Numbered from the stretch's first letter, positions 6,354 through 64,000 are shown. The stretch: DNA of 64,000 nucleotides from a virus (IMGVR_UViG_3300029985_000017:99230-163229); one strand, 5' to 3'. A program made the numbers and translations. Notes: generated by a model not told the origin, from the sequence alone.

Positions 6354-6658
6354 TTAAATTGACCAAAAAAATGCTTAAGATGCATCCTGCTGATCTACTG
6401 ATTAAGTTAGGTGCTGCTGATTTGAAGAAAAAAGTTGCATATCCACAACATGTCTATTTTTCAAGGGAAGACTATAAAGAATTAGGAAATAATCTAAAAG
6501 CTTATGCTAAAAAAACAGCTCCATACACTTCCTCTAGGATAGTAAATTATTCTGTAGGCATGGACCTTCTCAACTTTGGTCCTAATGAAACACTTAAGGA
6601 TGCCGTTCGTCCTGGTTGGGCATTGGTGGATAAAAAGGGAATTGCTAAGGAACAATAA
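6344..6658 (+). CDS. Hypothetical protein
   Basis: Overlaps previous gene, GGGGAG RBS. Confidence 0.6.
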   Translation: MEVIKLTKKMLKMHPADLLIKLGAADLKKKVAYPQHVYFSREDYKELGNNLKAYAKKTAPYTSSRIVNYSVGMDLLNFGPNETLKDAVRPGWALVDKKGIAKEQ

Positions 6659-26381: not shown

Positions 26382-26585
26382 TTAGCGCAAACGATTGCGT
26401 TCCCTCAATTGAATGAGTTGAGTTTCCAAGTTCTTGAAACTAGTACGAAAGTCATCCAAAGTCTTATTGGTCTGTTCAATATGGGCATTTAATTTAACCA
26501 CAAGATCATCAAAAATTCTAGGAGCTGATGCATGAGTAGTTACATAGCCAATAACTGGGGGATCCACTTTCTTCTTCTTAGCCAT
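26382..26585 (-). CDS. Small coiled-coil protein
   Basis: Start MAKKK overlaps the previous stop. Confidence 0.55.
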   Translation of the reverse strand: MAKKKKVDPPVIGYVTTHASAPRIFDDLVVKLNAHIEQTNKTLDDFRTSFKNLETQLIQLRERNRLR

Positions 26586-26832
26586 TCTGTTCACCATCTT
26601 TTTCGTTTTTTATGGATTCAATATTAACACTATAGGCCTTTTCGATTTTCTTATAGACGGTAAGATTACAAACACCTAAAATCTTAGCAGCTTTAGATTT
26701 ATTCCCTTTAGTCATTTTAAGAACTTTAAATAGATAAAGTCTTTCCACTTCTTCTAGAGTGGGCCAATTTGTAATATCTATATATTCTCCATGTCCTTCG
26801 CTGCCTTCGGCTTCGATTTCCGTTTCTCCCAT
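26578..26832 (-). CDS. Stand-alone Fis-type helix-turn-helix protein (like the C-terminal HTH of NtrC-family activators)
   Basis: PTLEEVERLYLFKVLKMTKGNKSKAAKILGVCNLTVYKKI; start at ATG 26832 after GGGAG. Confidence 0.85.
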   Translation of the reverse strand: MGETEIEAEGSEGHGEYIDITNWPTLEEVERLYLFKVLKMTKGNKSKAAKILGVCNLTVYKKIEKAYSVNIESIKNEKDGEQNG

Positions 26833-32598: not shown

Positions 32599-34220
32599 AG
32601 TCCACATACCCCGTTAATACATTCACGTTCTTGTTCTTCAAAGACTTTTCCTTCGTCTGCTAGCGCTTCGTCTAGACTAACTCTGGTAAGGGGTTGTCCA
32701 CCACGAGCACCGTCTGGATAAACCGTAAAGCCCCTCAAACGTTTGGCATACTTAAGCAATGTAGCAGCGTTCTTCTCATAATTGCCTTCATTGTTTGATT
32801 CAGATCCCCAACTATCCATATTACAGGTGCTAGAGATAGCCATATCAACATAATTCTGAACATCTGCTTGAAACTTAACTCGTTGTTTGAACGTTAAGTC
32901 ACCTGCATCTTTAATGTTTTCCACTTTAACGCCTTGTTCTAACAATCTCTTAACAGATCCATCTACTACATATTGATACATCCACTTACCATCTTTAAAG
33001 TATCGTCTTTTATAGGCTTTACAGAACAAAGGTTCGACACCAGTAGTACTTTCTGCAATTATGCCTATCGTTCCTGTGGGCGCGATGGCCCTTACACCTT
33101 TAGGTACAGATACTCCTAGCTGTTTGGCCCCAATAAAGGCAGCTGAATCGCTTTCTTGTTCATATACAGAAAGTAATTTATGAAGTTCTGGAGTTACTTC
33201 ATATGGTTGACCTTTAGACATCAACCATTCGTGAATACCACCTAAGCCCAATCCAATCCTATTATTCTTAGAGCCTACTTCTTTAATCTTTTGAGTAGGA
33301 ACATCGCTATAAATACTGCCACAAAGAAGAAAAAGGGTAGCATATTTAGTGGCTTCTTGTAAATCTTTTTTGTCTTTCATTCTATTAAGCCAAAGTGTTC
33401 CTAGGTTACATTTATCAGAATCGTCTTCACTTACCACTTCTGTACAAGCATTTCTTAGTGATTCAGCATCTTTACGAAAGTTAAAACTCATTCCAGGTTC
33501 TGCGGTAGAAAAAGCTTGTTTACAATTTTGTAGCCAAATACTTTTGGCTATTTCGTTTTTAGGATGTGATTCATTTTCAATGGCTATAAAAAATTCTGTA
33601 TCATAAATAATAGAAATATTAGTCAGTTCCATTGGAAGAGGAAAATTAAGATCGGCTAATTTTGTTGTCTTGAGTTGATCAGAATAATCCTTAAGAGTCA
33701 TAAAAGTTTTAATATCTGGGTGAGACCAATTAAGCCCTGCCCAAATAGCACTTCTTCGTTGTCCACCTTGCATGATATAGCGTCCTGATTCATTTACCAT
33801 TTTCATGAGAGCGATCGGACCTGTAGAAGTTCCGCCAGTCCTAGAAATCTTGGCGCCTTCATGTCTAAGTTTAGAATAGTCAACTCCAATTCCACCACCT
33901 GTCATCAAAGACGCGGTAATCTTGTGCATAGTATCTGCCCAAGACTCGCGGCTATCTTCAGCTCTAAAAAGAAAACAATTATTAACTTGATGGAATTCTC
34001 TACCAGCAGAATATAGATATCTACCGCCAGGAATAAACTTTCGTTCTAGTATAATATTGTAGATCTTTTCTTTAGTCTTAGTATCTAAAAGCTGAGAACA
34101 AACAGCTTCCGTGACACGCTTAGCTGTATGAGCCCAACTTTCTACTCCATCTTTAGAATATTTTTGAAGATAAATGTCATGAGAAAACTTAGATGAAAAA
34201 ACGTCAAACTGATTCTTCAC
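32595..34220 (-). CDS. nrdJ: Compact ribonucleotide reductase, probably class II (B12-dependent)
   Basis: PGGR, NNCF, QGGQRR, NACTE (radical Cys), APTGTI, GFTVYPDG, C-terminal CINGVC; no beta subunit in window. Confidence 0.85.
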   Translation of the reverse strand: MKNQFDVFSSKFSHDIYLQKYSKDGVESWAHTAKRVTEAVCSQLLDTKTKEKIYNIILERKFIPGGRYLYSAGREFHQVNNCFLFRAEDSRESWADTMHKITASLMTGGGIGVDYSKLRHEGAKISRTGGTSTGPIALMKMVNESGRYIMQGGQRRSAIWAGLNWSHPDIKTFMTLKDYSDQLKTTKLADLNFPLPMELTNISIIYDTEFFIAIENESHPKNEIAKSIWLQNCKQAFSTAEPGMSFNFRKDAESLRNACTEVVSEDDSDKCNLGTLWLNRMKDKKDLQEATKYATLFLLCGSIYSDVPTQKIKEVGSKNNRIGLGLGGIHEWLMSKGQPYEVTPELHKLLSVYEQESDSAAFIGAKQLGVSVPKGVRAIAPTGTIGIIAESTTGVEPLFCKAYKRRYFKDGKWMYQYVVDGSVKRLLEQGVKVENIKDAGDLTFKQRVKFQADVQNYVDMAISSTCNMDSWGSESNNEGNYEKNAATLLKYAKRLRGFTVYPDGARGGQPLTRVSLDEALADEGKVFEEQERECINGVCGL

Positions 34221-56982: not shown

Positions 56983-57777
56983 TAAAGGGATATATCACGA
57001 CTCCAAAGGACCCTGGGTTCAGGGAGCCCTTTTAAGAGAGAATTTTTCGGAAATTTTTTAATGAAGTCATATAGTTAGGAGTGTTTAAAAATGGGGGTTT
57101 TGCGTAAAACTCTAAAAAAGACAAATATATGAAATTATTAAAGAAATGTGTATTTAATAGCTTATTGGGGGAGAGGCAGTTTATAGGGAAAAATTCTGGA
57201 AAAATTTTTTTAATCGTGATTGCACGTCTATATAGAATAGACTATAGAGTTGTAATCATTGGAAACCCCGAAAACACTATATTATCAATGACTTATCTCC
57301 ATGTCACCTATGACACACGTTGATTTCATTAGGGTTTATGCGCCTAGACTTTGGGCATAGACTGTTATTGACACACTTACACTATCCTGATGCTTGACAC
57401 AGCCTAACACCATTGACGAATGACCGCGCCGCTGTTAACAATTGACTTTATGGAATCGGAGACTAACTCCGACTCATTGATATCATTGACTTATATTGAT
57501 TTAACAAACTTGATTAAACATTTTGCTATTTTGTGCAGTGCTGTAACTCACATATAGACGACTTGACACACTTGACCGATCGACCATGACCATGCCGCCA
57601 TTGACCTATAGGACGCACGAATGCCTGGCTCCCGGTGGGTGCCAGGCTTGACTCAGGGTATATAATTTTGTGGTATATAACTTGCATTTTGAATGCTATT
57701 AGGTGGGTCAATGACGACTCACTATAGACTTACTTTAGAATGCAAGATACACTACATAGTAAAGATTAGGCGACTAG

Positions 57778-57880
57778 TGACATTCTATGACATAGCCATG
57801 GTGACAATATACGTCAAAGTGACAATATTTGGTACATTAGCCCTATACGATTCAATGACTTACATTGGCATTCCATATGC
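57778..57880 (+). promoter_or_regulatory. sigma54-type promoter with three upstream TGAC-N7-GTCA-like boxes
   Basis: Boxes at 57778/57802/57820; TGGCATTCCATATGCA (GG 57867, GC 57879). Confidence 0.7.
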
Positions 57881-57893
57881 ATTACTTATAACC

Positions 57894-58295
57894 ATGATTA
57901 GTTATATTAACCGTATTATTTTAACCCAAGCTTCTAAACTCAAGTATACGGTAGCCGATCACGCGCCGGGTACTGAAAAAGGGTTATTCAATCAAGCTAG
58001 TTTAGTTATATGGTCTGGCGCTTCTGACGATACCATATTTGACGATTGTAGGGTTAACTGGGCATTCCGGGCATTGCACGATTCATTGCATTTAAAAACG
58101 GGTTTAGGTTTTAGTATTGCAGAAGAGATTTATTTAGGTAGGTTACAGGCTAATCAGTATTCAGGTATATTAGCTGATTTAGTTTATAGCGAGGTAGCGG
58201 AACAAGCTGAATACTATAGAATTAATGGTGTATTTGTACCTAATCAAAAAACCTTTGCTATTGACTCTCTTAAATCGAAAGGATTGTTAAAATGA
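57894..58295 (+). CDS. Hypothetical protein
   Basis: Start moved to MISYINR just after the sigma54 site; ATGA overlap with next gene. Confidence 0.55.
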   Translation: MISYINRIILTQASKLKYTVADHAPGTEKGLFNQASLVIWSGASDDTIFDDCRVNWAFRALHDSLHLKTGLGFSIAEEIYLGRLQANQYSGILADLVYSEVAEQAEYYRINGVFVPNQKTFAIDSLKSKGLLK

Positions 58296-58741
58296 TTAAA
58301 TATATACTAATTCTATTTATATCTCAGTTAGCCTATAGCGGCGATTTTAACACGATTCAAGGGTTAGCTCATTCTAATGGTTTTAACCCGTCTAATAGGG
58401 TTGTCAAGGCTATATACCATGCGGCGCGGCTATACCATATCCCTGTAAAGGAATTGACTGCTATAGCTATCCTCGAAACGGGTATAGGCTTCAATGCCAA
58501 AGTTAGGCATAACTCCAATGGTACACTAGATATAGGTTTATTTCAGATTAACACTGTAAACCAGTCTAGTTGCAAGGAATTCAATTTGACTTCAATTGAA
58601 GGAAATGCGTTATGCGCGGCGAAGCTATTGCATAGGATAGCCCATAGGCATTCCGACTATTTAGGCCGTTATCACTCTAAAACACCTAGTCATAAAATCA
58701 AATATATCCGCGCTATTAAACATATCTTGGCCATTGAGTGA
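58292..58741 (+). CDS. Secreted lytic transglycosylase (IagB/EtgA-like SLT)
   Basis: Signal peptide; AIAILETG, NSNGTLDIGLFQINT, GRYHS. Confidence 0.88.
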   Translation: MIKYILILFISQLAYSGDFNTIQGLAHSNGFNPSNRVVKAIYHAARLYHIPVKELTAIAILETGIGFNAKVRHNSNGTLDIGLFQINTVNQSSCKEFNLTSIEGNALCAAKLLHRIAHRHSDYLGRYHSKTPSHKIKYIRAIKHILAIE

Positions 58742-58839
58742 CAATTATTGTCCCGATTAGGTGACAATTTTTGTTATTGGGACAATTATTGTCCCGATTA
58801 GGATTGAAATGATTAGATTATTTCTGGCATTAGGGTTGC
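58739..58839 (+). promoter_or_regulatory. sigma54-type promoter with three upstream boxes
   Basis: Boxes at 58739/58762/58780; TGGCATTAGGGTTGCA (GG 58826, GC 58838). Confidence 0.8.
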
Positions 58840-58869
58840 AATAGATAGTGTTATAGGAGATTTATTAAC

Positions 58870-58995
58870 ATGGCTGAAATTGTTCAAGTTAAAAACGGTT
58901 TTCAAGTGATTTATAAAGGCAGAATTAGTGTTAAATTTGATAGCATTCTTGATGCTATTCGGTATTCCTATAAAATGAAACGATTATACCTATAA
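58870..58995 (+). CDS. 41-aa microprotein (absent from ORF track)
   Basis: AGGAGA RBS; MAEIVQVKNGFQVIYKGR... Confidence 0.55.
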   Translation: MAEIVQVKNGFQVIYKGRISVKFDSILDAIRYSYKMKRLYL

Positions 58996-59009
58996 TGGGG
59001 GAGTGAATT

Positions 59010-59129
59010 ATGCGAGTGTATTTCAAAGAGTCTAATAGTGATAAGTTATCTTTTACTGAAGTCTATACCCAAACTATGTATTTAATTGGAGTATTGACGA
59101 TTTTACTTGCAACGTGGTTTTATAACTAA
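59010..59129 (+). CDS. 39-aa membrane microprotein (absent from ORF track)
   Basis: GGGAG RBS; C-terminal hydrophobic helix. Confidence 0.5.
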   Translation: MRVYFKESNSDKLSFTEVYTQTMYLIGVLTILLATWFYN

Positions 59130-59395
59130 ACTAGATTGATTAATGCTTTAGCCTGGTATAATTCTTGATTGAATTGTACCGGGCTTTAGCAATTGAAAGG
59201 TATTAATATGGGCATTAAAAAAACTGAATTGAAATGCTATGTTATGGTTCCGGCTAACAAAGTTAATCAAATCAATAGAAATTATGTATTTGATTAACTT
59301 TGACGATGCTAAAGTATTTTTTGAGTATTATTTAACTAAGGGTTATAAGGGTTTAAGTATAGAATCGGCTTTTATAATTGAAGGAGTATTATCAA

Positions 59396-59617
59396 ATGAA
59401 TAGTTGTAGGTTATGCAATGATCGTGATTTATTGACTAATGGCCTATGCTTCCCATGCCACTATATGGATACCATTGTTTATAAAATGGGTTCCGATATC
59501 CTCTATGCCGATTATGATCACTTAATTGAAAAAGCGGATAGATATAACTCAATAGGCTTTTTGACTAGTAAATCGGTTAGGTTTATTGGCAATGTAAATC
59601 AATTGGGTTATAACTAA
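59396..59617 (+). CDS. Zn-finger hypothetical protein
   Basis: AAGGAG RBS; CRLC...CFPC. Confidence 0.55.
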   Translation: MNSCRLCNDRDLLTNGLCFPCHYMDTIVYKMGSDILYADYDHLIEKADRYNSIGFLTSKSVRFIGNVNQLGYN

Positions 59618-59649
59618 TAGCTATTAATATCCTCTAATATCACCTATAA

Positions 59650-59694
59650 TAGCCCGGCTTATTCCTTCAGGGGATAGATCGGGCTATGTTATTT
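59650..59694 (+). terminator. Hairpin terminator
   Basis: UAGCCCGGCUUAUUCC-UUCA-GGGGAUAGAUCGGGCUA then U-rich. Confidence 0.55.
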
Positions 59695-59701
59695 GGTATT
59701 A

Positions 59702-59803
59702 TGACCATAATTGTCAGTATTGAGTGACATTTTTGAGTATTATGACCATAATTGTCACTATTATATATTGATTTTATTAAATTTTATTTGGCCTACTGGT
59801 TGC
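59702..59803 (+). promoter_or_regulatory. sigma54-type promoter with three upstream boxes
   Basis: Boxes at 59702/59725/59743 (TGACCATAATTGTCA twice); TGGCCTACTGGTTGCA (GG 59790, GC 59802). Confidence 0.8.
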
Positions 59804-59816
59804 AATAACTAATATC

Positions 59817-59972
59817 ATGAGAGTATTTCAAATTAAATACAAGTTGAGATGCGGAACTATGGTAGAATGCTTTAAGGCTTATACCTGTACACTTGCGGTA
59901 GAAAAACTTTTAAAAGGTTTGACTCCGCGTGATAAGATGTATTTTAATATAGTTTCTATTAACATGCTTTGA
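59817..59972 (+). CDS. 51-aa microprotein, near-leaderless (absent from ORF track)
   Basis: ATG 14 nt after the -12 GC; MRVFQIKYKLRCG... Confidence 0.5.
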   Translation: MRVFQIKYKLRCGTMVECFKAYTCTLAVEKLLKGLTPRDKMYFNIVSINML

Positions 59973-59981
59973 GGTATACCT

Positions 59982-60209
59982 ATGACACCGATGAAGTTTA
60001 AAGACGCAATCGATTTACTTGAGTCAAATGGCTTTGTGTTCATTCGTGCTAATGGTCATCAGATATATGGCAAGGGAAGCGTTAGGATTGCCCTAGCGCA
60101 TCAAAGGATTGTATCGGTAGGGGTTGTTAGGTCAATCCTCAGAGCTATTAAACAAGCCAATAGCCAAGAGCCTTTGACGCCATTTTTCGTCACATTGCCT
60201 AGCCGTTAA
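59982..60209 (+). CDS. hicA: HicA-like mRNA interferase fold protein
   Basis: MKFKDAIDLLESNGFVFIRANGHQIY...H..VSVGVVRSIL. Confidence 0.7.
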   Translation: MTPMKFKDAIDLLESNGFVFIRANGHQIYGKGSVRIALAHQRIVSVGVVRSILRAIKQANSQEPLTPFFVTLPSR

Positions 60210-60278
60210 TTGTCATATTGCCCTAAATTGTCACTCGGTTTATTGATCTCATTAAGTTTTATTTGGTACGTTCATTGC
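60178..60278 (+). promoter_or_regulatory. sigma54-type promoter with three degenerate upstream boxes
   Basis: Boxes at 60178/60201/60219, each ending GTCA; TGGTACGTTCATTGCT (GG 60265, GC 60277). Confidence 0.75.
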
Positions 60279-60302
60279 TTTATACTATAGCAAGGAGTCA
60301 TT

Positions 60303-61670
60303 ATGCTGAAACATATTAGAATTCAGATTGACGGAAATAAAAGCTACCTGATTTATCAACGTGGTTTATTTCATGCCATTGAATTGATTAAGCCTATTGA
60401 AAATCATAGCTATTATGGTAATAGCACTACAGGAGGATTAAAAGGGGCATTTACCTATCTCAAAGTGGAAATCGGAAGTCAACGAGAAGCATTGAGAAAT
60501 GTTGATAAACTCACTTCAAAGGGTTCCGAATCAATTCTAAAGATTTTAAATAGAAAACGCGAACGAGTATGGCGCGAGTGTCTCAATTCAAAAAAGCCCG
60601 TTACCTTGCATAAGCACGTAGGGGTTGAAATTGAATTCGTTTCAGAGTCAACTAGGGAAGCTATAGCCAAGAGCCTTGCGCTAGCGGGTTTAGCTTCATT
60701 CACTGAATTAAAGTCAGATGGATCAGTACACGGCGGAAGTAGCGGCATTGACGGGGATTGTGATGGATCATGCCGTAGCGAATGCGAGTGTTATGAATGC
60801 GGCGAATATCACTATTGCGATGAAGAAACGGAATGCACTAGACAACGGCGAAGGATTGGCACAGTTAGTGACGGCGAATGGGAATATCGCGATGGCTGTA
60901 CCGAATGCAATGAAACTGAAACGATTGAAGATTGTGAATGCGGCGGCCAAAATGAACAAGGCGAAAATGTATGCAATGGCGCGCACGTAGTTTGTTCCGG
61001 CCATTGCCCAGGACATTATTGCCAAGGCTATGATGATCATGACAATAATAATTGTGAATGCGACCATAATGACTACTGTGGCGGCAATGATGGGAATAGT
61101 GGTCATGAGCTGGCTATAGTCGCAAAGTCTACTCAAATAGCTTCTGTGATTTCAAAAGCTTGTAAAGTGTTAGCTGATCACAAAGCAGAAGTAAATTCTA
61201 CATGCGGGTTACACGTTCACATTGACATGCGTAACCGTGACGAAAAACAAGCTTTTGCTAACTTAGTTAAATCTCAAAAGCTTTTATATAGCATGGTTCC
61301 ACGTTCAAGGTACGAAAACACTTATTGTAAACCAAACGATAAGGGTTTAAAAATGGATAGTTATCAAGGCAGGTACTTAGGCATTAACCCTAGTTCATAT
61401 GGTGAACACGGTACTATTGAAGTTAGATTGCATTCTGGTACGGTTAACGCTGAAAAAATCAATAATTGGATTAAATTACTACAGGCAATTGCATATTCAA
61501 AACGTGTACCAAAGATCGTAAAACTATCTGATTTAGTTAATAATGTTAAATTGCCTAGTACCTTAATTGAATACATTGAAAAACGATTGGCTACCTTTGC
61601 CAATAAACACCAAAGCTATTCGGTTGAAAATGATCTCAATATACAAATTGAATTGCCATTGGCCGCCTAA
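60303..61670 (+). CDS. Putative amidoligase (COOH-NH2 ligase) with Cys-rich insertion
   Basis: GVEIEF, DGS, HELA, TCGLHVH, RY..IN, TIEVRLH. Confidence 0.85.
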   Translation: MLKHIRIQIDGNKSYLIYQRGLFHAIELIKPIENHSYYGNSTTGGLKGAFTYLKVEIGSQREALRNVDKLTSKGSESILKILNRKRERVWRECLNSKKPVTLHKHVGVEIEFVSESTREAIAKSLALAGLASFTELKSDGSVHGGSSGIDGDCDGSCRSECECYECGEYHYCDEETECTRQRRRIGTVSDGEWEYRDGCTECNETETIEDCECGGQNEQGENVCNGAHVVCSGHCPGHYCQGYDDHDNNNCECDHNDYCGGNDGNSGHELAIVAKSTQIASVISKACKVLADHKAEVNSTCGLHVHIDMRNRDEKQAFANLVKSQKLLYSMVPRSRYENTYCKPNDKGLKMDSYQGRYLGINPSSYGEHGTIEVRLHSGTVNAEKINNWIKLLQAIAYSKRVPKIVKLSDLVNNVKLPSTLIEYIEKRLATFANKHQSYSVENDLNIQIELPLAA

Positions 61671-61688
61671 CTTTGAAAGGATATGCCC

Positions 61689-62642
61689 TTGTGTAAAATA
61701 TTCGCCTTAACTAATGCCTCAAAAGTGAATTTTGATAGTAAGTTTATTAACATTGTCAAAAGTCAAGTATGTAAAACGAATGACCGCGATGGTTTTGGCT
61801 ATGCTGTACTCCGTGACTCAGGCTTAATACATGGTGAACGTACTACTAATCCCGAATTGTTTGAACCTTTGCGAGTGTCAGGGGTTACAGCGGCATTGCC
61901 TTGCATCGAAGTTACGCGCAATTCATTTGGTTCAATTGATGATACTAAACTAAAATCATTTATCGGACATGGGAGATTTTCGACTAATACCCGTAGCATT
62001 GAAAATACGCATCCATTTTTTGACGGCAATGCGGCATTAATTCACAATGGGGTTGTTAGGCATATTGGCCCTAAGATTGAGTCACTCAAAACCGATTGTG
62101 ATACTGAACTACTGGCCCATCACTGGGGTCAAAGTCAAATGCAAGGCATTGAGGATAGTATTACAGGTTATTATGCAATGGCTATACTTGAACACGGCAT
62201 GTTGCATATTGTTAAAGACTCAATTGCTTCACTTTATGTCGCATGGTCTCCTAGTATTGAAAGTTTTATTATTGCCACTACTCAAGACATTATTCAAGGG
62301 GTTGCTAAGGAAATGGGATGGGTTATTGAACCTTGTGAAGCTATTGCGGACAATTCTCATACGGTTTTTGACGGCAATAGCGTTGTGTCATGTGATGAAA
62401 TTTATCCCCTTGAAATCGACAATGGTCCTATTGATTCAAAAACTAGGGTTGCGTTAGGTATGGGCAGAGATTATGACGAACCATTGCCTGGCGATTCTGA
62501 AGAGTATTTTTCGGATGCGAATACTTTGGGCTATGAACGCGAATCAATTAGGTACAGCGATTTAAATGACGACGATGGGCCAGCTTATAGAGAAGACTAT
62601 TCGGCTGTTAGGGAATACATGAAAAGCAGAAAAGTAGGGTAA
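61689..62642 (+). CDS. Class II (Ntn) glutamine amidotransferase
   Basis: TTG start gives N-terminal Cys; DGFG, GHGRFST, NTHPF, HNG, DTE. Confidence 0.85.
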   Translation: MCKIFALTNASKVNFDSKFINIVKSQVCKTNDRDGFGYAVLRDSGLIHGERTTNPELFEPLRVSGVTAALPCIEVTRNSFGSIDDTKLKSFIGHGRFSTNTRSIENTHPFFDGNAALIHNGVVRHIGPKIESLKTDCDTELLAHHWGQSQMQGIEDSITGYYAMAILEHGMLHIVKDSIASLYVAWSPSIESFIIATTQDIIQGVAKEMGWVIEPCEAIADNSHTVFDGNSVVSCDEIYPLEIDNGPIDSKTRVALGMGRDYDEPLPGDSEEYFSDANTLGYERESIRYSDLNDDDGPAYREDYSAVREYMKSRKVG

Positions 62643-62854
62643 ACTAATGATTTGGTTTATTTACTTCAATGGTGATTTTTACTATCCGAGTCAAGATAAC
62701 CACTATAAACATGGTCGATCGGTAGCATGGGAAGGATCGGAAAACGATGCACGTAGGGTATGTGATGAGTTTAATGCAAAGATAGGTGTATAGGTCATTT
62801 TTGATATATAGGGTTGTTTTGACCAAAAAGTGTTTTTTAACTGAAAGGATTGAT

Positions 62855-63070
62855 ATGACTAAGCTAGAATATGGAATTATACAGGCATCAATTGATTTGA
62901 TTAAAGCAATGCGTAAAGAAAACCTAGCTATGCCAAAATCATTTTGTGCGCCATTAACGGTTAATGCGGCAGGTATTCTATTGGCCAGATTGCAAGATGC
63001 TGGCCATGTATTTGAGCCTATTAAAGAAAAGCCTAAAACTGATTTTACTATGGATGACGTGCCATTTTAA
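62855..63070 (+). CDS. Hypothetical protein
   Basis: GAAAGGA RBS, MTKLEY...DDVPF. Confidence 0.55.
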   Translation: MTKLEYGIIQASIDLIKAMRKENLAMPKSFCAPLTVNAAGILLARLQDAGHVFEPIKEKPKTDFTMDDVPF

Positions 63071-63098
63071 TTAAATTAAACTAACTGAAAGGATTAAT

Positions 63099-63299
63099 AT
63101 GAATTCATTTACAACTATCTATTTGACTGAAGACTATCAACCCGATGCTAGTGAGATCTCGCATCTAGAATATGCCGTCGAGCGTGAGATTGCCGTAGGT
63201 GAAGGGTTTATTAATGTATACAGCCGAGATAAGGAATTGATTAAAGATCTTGTGGATATTATAGGTGAGTTCTATGTTAAAGAAATTGCATGGGGATAG
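63099..63299 (+). CDS. Small acidic protein
   Basis: GAAAGGA RBS. Confidence 0.55.
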   Translation: MNSFTTIYLTEDYQPDASEISHLEYAVEREIAVGEGFINVYSRDKELIKDLVDIIGEFYVKEIAWG

Positions 63300-63364
63300 G
63301 TCAAATAGGGGATAGGTCAATTTCTATCTCCAAAAGTGTTTTCTCCCAAGAGTATTTTTTATGA

Positions 63365-63458
63365 TGACAATAAACGTCAACCCAAAATTGTTACTTGCTT
63401 ATGTCTTAGACAGTATGTTTATTGATATCATTGGACTTTGTCTTGGCCTAACGCTTGC
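63365..63458 (+). promoter_or_regulatory. sigma54-type promoter with one clear upstream box
   Basis: TGACAATAAACGTCA at 63365; TGGCCTAACGCTTGCT (GG 63445, GC 63457). Confidence 0.7.
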
Positions 63459-63503
63459 TATATAGTATGTCATAACTGGGCAATAGCCCAAAGGGAATAT
63501 CAA

Positions 63504-64000
63504 ATGAAGTTTCAAATTAAAAATCGTTTTGATTCATCGGTTATCTTTGAATGTGAAGCAGAATCTTTTGGCATTGCTGTTGAACTAGCTATTAAAGCTG
63601 GGGCGAATCTCTCTGGGGCGAATCTCTCTAGGGCGAATCTCTATGGGGCGAATCTCTCTAGGGCGGATCTCTCTAGGGCGGATCTCTATGGGGCGAATCT
63701 CTCTGGGGCGAATCTCTCTAGGGCGAATCTCTCTGGGGCGGATCTCTATGGGGCGAATCTCTCTGGGGCGGATCTCTCTAGGGCGGATCTCTCTGGGGCG
63801 GATCTCTCTAGGGCGAATCTCTCTGGGGCGAATCTCTCTAGGGCGAATCTCTCTGGGGCGGATCTCTCTGGGGCGAATCTCTCTGGGGCGGATCTCTCTA
63901 GGGCGGATCTCTCTGGGGCGGATCTCTCTTTTACTTGTATCTTTGGATTATACTTAGGGAAACATTTTGTATTCGGATGGAAAAAGACCAAAGAAATCGT
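63504..64000 (+). CDS. Pentapeptide-repeat protein, runs off the window end (absent from ORF track)
   Basis: [33 protein letters not shown] then A(N/D)L(S/Y)(G/R) repeats. Confidence 0.9.
63600..63929 (+). repeat. 22 tandem 15-bp coding repeats
   Basis: RGGGCGRATCTCTMT units. Confidence 0.95.

Follow-up and report, generated by a model that had tools for sequence, protein, structure and literature searches.

Putative sigma-54 promoters with PilR-type enhancer boxes in an uncultivated myovirus and in unrelated phage contigs

Which RNA polymerase, and which activator, reads the rightward genes at the end of the virus genome IMGVR_UViG_3300029985_000017? The DNA considered here (99230-163229, hereafter the window, 64,000 nucleotides in length) makes up the final 64 kb of an IMG/VR record of 163,229 bp, whose completeness CheckV puts at 99%, and its plus-strand block, at 57.6-64 kb of the window, contains six sites (P1 to P6) that resemble the -24/-12 elements of promoters served by sigma-54 (RpoN). 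On the basis of their architecture and of a comparison with bacterial genomes, we propose that these six sites are probably promoters for host RNA polymerase carrying sigma-54, activated by a host regulator of the PilR type; P2-P6, five of the six, appear to carry an enhancer composed of putative sites for this activator.

The pattern TGGYMY-N5-WTGCW has 10 matches in the window, compared with 1.17 +/- 1.08 in dinucleotide shuffles, and 0 of 100 shuffles reached 10. Six of the ten matches, at 57671, 57866, 58825, 59789, 60264 and 63444, lie on the plus strand, each ahead of a plus-strand gene or gene group. A preliminary description of this DNA had placed a GG at 57867, 58826, 59790, 60265 and 63445 before plus-strand units, with an extra one at 57672; these coordinates are confirmed, and the distance from GG to GC is exactly 10 nt in 6/6. 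The elements, all on the plus strand, are P1 (TGGTATATAACTTGCA, 57671-57686), which has no upstream box and is preceded by a GC-rich hairpin; P2 (TGGCATTCCATATGCA, 57866-57881), with an in-frame ATG at 57894; P3 (TGGCATTAGGGTTGCA, 58825-58840); P4 (TGGCCTACTGGTTGCA, 59789-59804), with an ATG at 59817; P5 (TGGTACGTTCATTGCT, 60264-60279), which precedes the amidoligase and glutamine-amidotransferase genes; and P6 (TGGCCTAACGCTTGCT, 63444-63459), which precedes a pentapeptide-repeat gene. Three more intergenic plus-strand sites of the form TGGCAT-N5-AAGCAATAG lie outside the window, at genome positions 2503, 6462 and 7549; they have no boxes, and the site at 6462 retains a TCATTAAG element resembling that of P5. 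Because the record ends inside a pentapeptide-repeat gene (window 63504-64000) and plus-strand genes resume at its start, these three sites are probably part of the same rightward block, continued across the record ends.

The boxes upstream of these sites are confined to the same block. The palindrome TGACA-N5-TGTCA, with at most one mismatch, has seven matches in the whole 163-kb genome, and 7/7 fall within 57778-63379, approximately 4% of its length, all upstream of -24/-12 sites and at fixed distances from them. Three 15-bp boxes of this type make up the enhancers of P2 (57778-57834; box starts at 57778, 57802 and 57820, spacing 24+18), P3 (58739-58794; starts at 58739, 58762 and 58780, spacing 23+18) and P4 (59702-59757; starts at 59702, 59725 and 59743, spacing 23+18). 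Measured to the TGG, the box starts of these three promoters are 86-88, 63-64 and 45-46 nt upstream, and the final box ends 32-33 nt before the GG. A triple array had been attributed to a fourth promoter, P5, as well; what is found there is a degenerate enhancer (60175-60233) with TGAC-N10-GTCA at 60175 and two in-register right-half boxes (ATTGTCA) at 60201 and 60219, so the triple array holds for P2, P3 and P4 only. P6 has a single box (TGACAATAAACGTCA, 63365) and a single half-site (AATTGTTA) within 63365-63393. As reported previously, four promoters have an element of the form TTGAWNTNATT, which resembles a site for integration host factor (IHF) and begins 22-23 nt ahead of the GG: P3 (TTGAAATGATT, 58804-58814, 22 nt before the GG), P4 (TTGATTTTATT, 59768-59778, one mismatch to YAANNNNTTGATW), P5 (TTGATCTCATT, 60243-60253) and P6 (TTGATATCATT, 63422-63432), all on the plus strand. 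The P4 copy, 21 nt before the TGG, is the only one of these four within one mismatch of YAANNNNTTGATW; a site matching YAANNNNTTGATW with the same tolerance is found 23-24 nt before the TGG in 13 other promoters of the compared set, 6 bacterial and 7 viral.

The cognate activator of such a promoter is an AAA+ protein with a GAFTGA loop, and the phage's own genes do not supply it. The lack of an AAA+ activator in the window, noted in the preliminary description, extends to the whole phage genome, in which we find no match to PF00158, no RpoN DNA-binding or activator-interacting domain, no sigma-70 region 2 and, in any frame, no GAFTGA-like loop. With neither a sigma factor nor an AAA+ activator in the phage, both must therefore come from the host. 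The block is also set apart from the other promoters of the window: TTGACT-N16-18-TANNNT occurs 14 times in the window against 3.2 expected, 12 of the 14 on the minus strand and none in the plus-strand block, in agreement with the earlier statement that TTGACT promoters are used elsewhere, and generic sigma-70-like matches in the plus-strand region do not exceed those in shuffles (31 vs 29.4). The three-tier transcription programme that had been proposed is only partly supported, and its AATCTTTA class is not enriched (12 vs 7.7 expected). A promoter class of the form TTGACTTT-N17-TAGACT-like, with 14 occurrences against 3.2 expected, lies mostly on the minus strand at window 28049-56628 and serves the leftward block of DNA-metabolism and small genes; its -10 hexamers (TAGACT, TAAGCT, TAGTCT) are unusual.

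The preliminary description had tied the block to a specific host activator and had suggested searching candidate host genomes for the same box together with its activator. Comparison with bacterial genomes supports the dependence and sharpens it to an activator of the PilR type. We scanned public bacterial and viral collections with a composite pattern, in which a box is followed after 28-58 nt by TGGYMY-N5-TTGCW; the bacterial scan covered one-genome-per-species contigs, and 80 of its loci were read. At least 120 bacterial contigs contain the composite pattern; they belong to Gamma-, Beta- and Zetaproteobacteria, Bdellovibrionota, Aquificota, Acidobacteriota, Nitrospirota and other groups. 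Azospira oryzae DSM 21223 (L087), for instance, has the module ahead of a pilin gene. In 29 of the 80 loci the first open reading frame (ORF) downstream opens with the type IV pilin leader GFTLIEL (...GFTLIELMIVVAIIGILAAIA), and in two more with AFTLVEL; among the loci read, no other gene follows the exact module nearly as often as a pilin gene does, and Pfam N_methyl or Pilin domains were found in four of the five downstream proteins scanned. At three loci (L098, L110 and L126) the module is adjoined by a sensor-kinase gene and by a gene for an enhancer-binding protein (EBP) with Response_reg, Sigma54_activat and HTH_8 domains; the kinase was scanned in L098 and L110, and that of L098 has a 6TM_PilS domain. 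By its gene content, this arrangement is the predicted PilS-PilR/RpoN circuit of the major pilin gene. Because the same module stands directly before type IV pilin genes and beside pilS/pilR, the missing activator of the phage promoters is most likely the PilR-type regulator of the host.

PilR, a response regulator of the NtrC family, works with the kinase PilS to switch on the type IV pilin gene. If the phage sites behave like pilin promoters, phosphorylated PilR dimers would occupy the TGACA-N5-TGTCA boxes, centered at approximately -64, -82 and -105, and assemble into an AAA+ ring. An IHF-type bend at the TTGAW element (approximately -47) would carry this ring to the closed E-sigma54 complex at -24/-12, where ATP hydrolysis would open the promoter. 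A comparable layout is known from commensal Neisseria, in which RpoN and IHF drive pilE together with Npa, a homologue of PilR, and in which the site for IHF separates the upstream activating sequence from the promoter (PMC6528607). In the phage system proposed here the virus would contribute DNA only, and expression of the genes behind the sites would be limited to cells in which RpoN and PilS-PilR are active. A sigma-54 promoter stays silent when its ATPase activator is missing, and a copy of the pilin enhancer would therefore hand control of a gene to the one host pathway that reports pilus production, and the phage would thereby cede control of some of its genes. What was computed here is the architecture with its statistical excess, the fact that the phage has genes for neither sigma factor nor activator, and the finding that the module is identical to that of bacterial pilin promoters; from these we infer binding, activation, timing and a benefit to the phage.

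The module is shared with other viruses. In the viral part of the scan the composite pattern is found in 38 IMG/VR stretches, which represent 29 distinct promoters with GC contents of 27%-63%, while a control with both elements reversed gives 2 matches. Twenty of the 29 distinct promoters have two to four boxes, and most of the promoters show such tandem copies of GTGACA-N5-TGTCAC ahead of a near-consensus TGGCAC-N5-TTGCW; the module is also carried by small, unrelated phages with genomes of 40-47 kb. PF00158 has no match in five module-bearing phage records, of which two are complete and have terminal repeats, and the same five IMG/VR records have no match to the terminase of the phage studied here. 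The occurrence of the module in dozens of unrelated viral contigs suggests repeated independent acquisition. Behind the PilR-type promoter of three contigs (L012, L016 and L029) lie a 303-aa ArdC-like protein (by eye), a 585-aa AAA_30/AAA_19 helicase (Pfam) and a 451-aa reverse-transcriptase-like protein (by eye); in several module-bearing contigs the promoter points away from the terminase-portal genes. Neither Ralstonia phage DU_RP_II nor phage DSL-LC05, which are cultured phages related to one module-bearing contig, has the module, and a second module-bearing contig has no match among phage records.

A number of observations weigh against a PilR-driven sigma-54 system. The -24 hexamers TGGCAT, TGGCCT, TGGTAC and TGGTAT differ from TGGCAC, and the -12 element of P2 is ATGCA; P1 and the sites at 2503, 6462 and 7549 have no boxes, which makes four of nine phage sites boxless, and the boxes of P5 and P6 are degenerate. 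The published PilR site of P. aeruginosa is written TGT-N11-ACA, with GTCT elements, and for this reason the box is assigned to PilR by cross-genome context and not by footprint. Furthermore, NCBIfam holds no PilR model, and the neighboring EBPs all score below equivalog cut-offs and are left unnamed by profile.

The relatives of the phage speak both for the proposal, in their clustered -24/-12 sites, and against it, in their lack of boxes. They share 50-57% DnaE identity with it and have genomes of 162-170 kb. One of them, G010 (L191), has six clustered intergenic -24/-12 sites on the plus strand, at 43.4-50.1 kb of its record, with a common GATTTTATTA element before the TGG and with other upstream repeats, including CCGTATA-N5-TATACGG; G011 (L210) has two such sites, at 33648 and 37242 of its record, while in G008 and G009 one to three candidates were seen. 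The -24/-12 sites of these relatives are without TGACA-type boxes, and the module is present in none of these phages, so that either the relatives are served by other activators or the boxes are non-essential. From the sequences compared, the use of sigma-54-type promoters looks like a trait of the family, with an enhancer that differs between members, and the differing enhancers of the relatives may track different host activators.

The alternative that best survives these data, although we consider it unlikely, accepts the sites as sigma-54 promoters and differs in the activator, which would be another host EBP with a similar palindrome preference, or an unrecognized phage protein. It draws on the observations that pilin lies directly downstream in just 29-31 of the 80 bacterial loci, that some matches precede other genes (at L049, one that appears nitrogenase-related by eye), that boxes are missing at four of the nine phage sites, and that the relatives have different upstream repeats, such as the CCGTATA palindrome of G010. 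The commonest gene after the exact module is nevertheless pilin, the kinase and response-regulator EBP genes adjoin it at three loci, one with the 6TM_PilS domain, and the phage has no AAA+ activator, GAFTGA loop or PF00158 domain of its own, the last being absent also from the five other module-bearing phages. Judged by the signals of Bacteroidota, the strong Shine-Dalgarno sites and the TTGACT-N17-TAnnnT promoters speak against a host from that phylum. A host regulator of the PilR type is therefore the activator that we favor.

It is very improbable that a divergent sigma factor or RNA polymerase of the phage reads TGG-N9-TTGCAATA independently of host RpoN. Conservation does extend past the canonical core, with GCAATAGAT in P3 and at genome sites 6462 and 7549, the motif is common to relatives (GCAATACTA in G010), and many of the large proteins of the phage are unannotated and could include such a factor. 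A phage factor is, however, hard to reconcile with the lack of any sigma-54 or sigma-70 domain match, with an upstream enhancer and IHF-like site of the kind typical of host sigma-54 systems, and with the presence of the module in the unrelated 40-47 kb phages.

We give marginally less weight still to a reading in which the boxes are operators, on ordinary sigma-70 promoters, for a phage DNA-binding protein, and in which the TGG...TTGC spacing is a by-product. The candidate for such a protein is P0001, a stand-alone HTH_8 (Fis/NtrC-type helix-turn-helix) protein of 84 aa encoded at 26578-26832 on the minus strand; it is a genuine EBP/Fis-type helix-turn-helix protein, and P6 does overlap a weak TTGTCT-17-TATAGT match. 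Sigma-70-like matches are nonetheless at the level of shuffles and no TTGACT-class promoter lies in the block, none of the six sites departs from the GG-N10-GC spacing, and bacterial pilin genes are preceded by this very module. P0001 itself fits poorly. Its recognition helix, CNLTVYKKI, was compared directly with SFRSLRYKL and NLREFRYRL of the three EBPs read as PilR, namely those encoded beside a sensor-kinase gene and the box module; the helix is not PilR-like, which speaks against P0001 as a captured PilR DNA-binding domain. A word-based search found no homologues of P0001 at any length, and HTH_8 does not score above the Pfam cut-off in any of the five other module-bearing phages. The related phage G010, with its six sigma-54-type sites, lacks an HTH_8 gene; in G009 such a gene is present and the sites are few. 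Because homologues are lacking, the helix is unlike that of PilR, and HTH_8 gene and sites are uncoupled in G010 and G009, the later silencing of these promoters by this protein, which the preliminary description had envisaged, is unsupported, as is the putative membership of P0001 in the promoter system. That the resemblance is a chance product or a functionless relic is barely credible despite the degeneracy of some boxes, given that 0/100 shuffles reach the observed count, that 7/7 boxes fall in approximately 4% of the genome with fixed geometry, and that the viral scan gives 38 matches vs 2 in the control.

The genes behind the sites encode a phrog_7806 protein, an SLT lysozyme-like protein, a HicA-like protein, the amidoligase and glutamine amidotransferase, pentapeptide-repeat proteins and small ORFs. 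P2 lies within a stretch that is open in frame upstream, and the PHROG match to this ORF is limited to residues 82-195, which leaves its upstream half uncovered. The SLT-type protein (58292-58741) has an apparent N-terminal signal sequence (by eye), and the HicA-like toxin domain (59982-60209) has no obvious HicB partner; both assignments have Pfam scores below the gathering cut-offs. At P2 and P4 the first ATG (57894 and 59817) lies exactly 14 nt past the C of the -12 GC, and, because a sigma-54 start would be expected 11-14 nt past the GC, at or beside this ATG, the mRNAs of the two units may be leaderless or nearly so; Shine-Dalgarno leaders are present at P1, P3, P5 and P6. At the start of the genome, a repeated junction, AGTGAATTTTA(A/G)...GGAGA, directly precedes three start codons (L003 ~100-130, 1280-1302 and 1870-1898) and looks like a shared cassette boundary that combines a stop with a ribosome site.

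Elsewhere the record has the genes of a myovirus, including those for a tail sheath, portal, large terminase, GroEL, an SbcC-like protein and a DnaE-type polymerase, with a GC content of approximately 38%; many of its large proteins are without annotation. The nearest isolate by the DnaE-type polymerase, Myxococcus phage Mx1, is at 33% identity too distant to name a host. A blastn search of the promoter region against 50,697 phage records gave no nucleotide match, an amidoligase-based search for relatives found none, and Rfam and tRNA scans of the promoter region found nothing; the sole tRNA found in the genome is a tRNA-Ile with anticodon TAT (L003 5309-5385). Stretches at the genome start (L003 128-535 and 2998-3405) have 22-mers in common with the 5' part of the terminal pentapeptide-repeat gene. 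A second, independently made assembly of this phage (L222; 159,932 bp) stops at most 3 nt from the point at which the record ends, and for this reason the break is probably caused by repeats. Strain-level variants were considered as a means of footprinting, and the only other contig compared proved identical over 8.5 kb.

A broader hypothesis, which we regard as possible but doubtful, is that this phage, together with the unrelated uncultivated phage contigs that carry at least 29 distinct promoters of this type, reads the pilus state of the host via PilS-PilR. Accessory genes would then fire only in piliated or pilin-depleted cells, which are those that a pilus-binding phage can enter, and could go on firing should the phage shut off sigma-70 transcription; the system would be an enhancer-based counterpart, spread over many phyla, of the 'lytic deferment' described for CtrA. 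Full-text literature searches, of incomplete coverage, returned no paper linking PilR enhancers to phage promoters. If the dependence of the phage promoters on host PilR is confirmed, it would provide a second and mechanistically different case, after CtrA, of phages that sense the state of a surface appendage through a host regulator. PilR boxes coupled to a -24/-12 element would be a signature predicting RpoN/PilR-positive and probably piliated hosts of uncultivated phages, and the modules would offer natural, compact and tightly gated promoter cassettes.

Sigma-54-dependent promoters are not in themselves new to phages. The preliminary description presented the programme as one not known from described phages, which overstates the novelty of its sigma-54 component, as Pseudomonas phage YuA is already an example (Ceyssens et al. 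2008, as cited in bioRxiv 10.1101/2023.10.13.562163), with three -24/-12 promoter fragments annotated in NC_010116. Like the phage studied here, YuA has no sigma-54 of its own and entrusts part of its transcription to host RpoN; its sites differ in lying in the structural and lysis region, and no activator is named for YuA in the literature consulted. A closer kinship of the two systems was considered and rejected, as YuA has no TGACA-N5-TGTCA box (at most one mismatch) and no strict -24/-12 match by the pattern used here.

Promoters of the NtrC/glnAp2 type share the general plan proposed here: palindromes for the activator lie 60-110 bp upstream, the DNA is bent, and the promoter cannot open without an ATPase activator. 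The NtrC site is TGCACC-N5-GGTGCA, however, and the box of the phage is unlike it in sequence. PilS-PilR/RpoN control of pilin genes (P. aeruginosa pilA; commensal Neisseria pilE, with Nps/Npa and IHF; PMC6528607, PMC6058289) provides a nearer match: in both, several activator sites stand upstream of a -24/-12 promoter, and the IHF-type site that follows them in the pilin systems may have its counterpart in the IHF-like element of the phage; the phage box TGACA-N5-TGTCA is the very box that precedes pilin genes near pilS/pilR in many phyla. The phage module differs from these in driving accessory genes instead of pilins, in having no regulator encoded nearby, in the triple array with its rigid spacing (23-24 and 18 bp), and in being repeated five times in 6 kb.

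The closest parallel in concept is that of CtrA, whose sites are clustered around the promoters of Alphaproteobacteria phages that are pili- or flagellotropic and have been linked to 'lytic deferment' (Mascolo et al. 2022, PMC9437464). In both cases unrelated phages would have independently loaded their promoters with sites for a host regulator that governs an appendage to which they may adsorb, so that expression is tied to the state of the host. The two differ in that CtrA acts at sigma-70 promoters and has been tested experimentally, whereas the regulator proposed here would be an AAA+ EBP acting at sigma-54 promoters.

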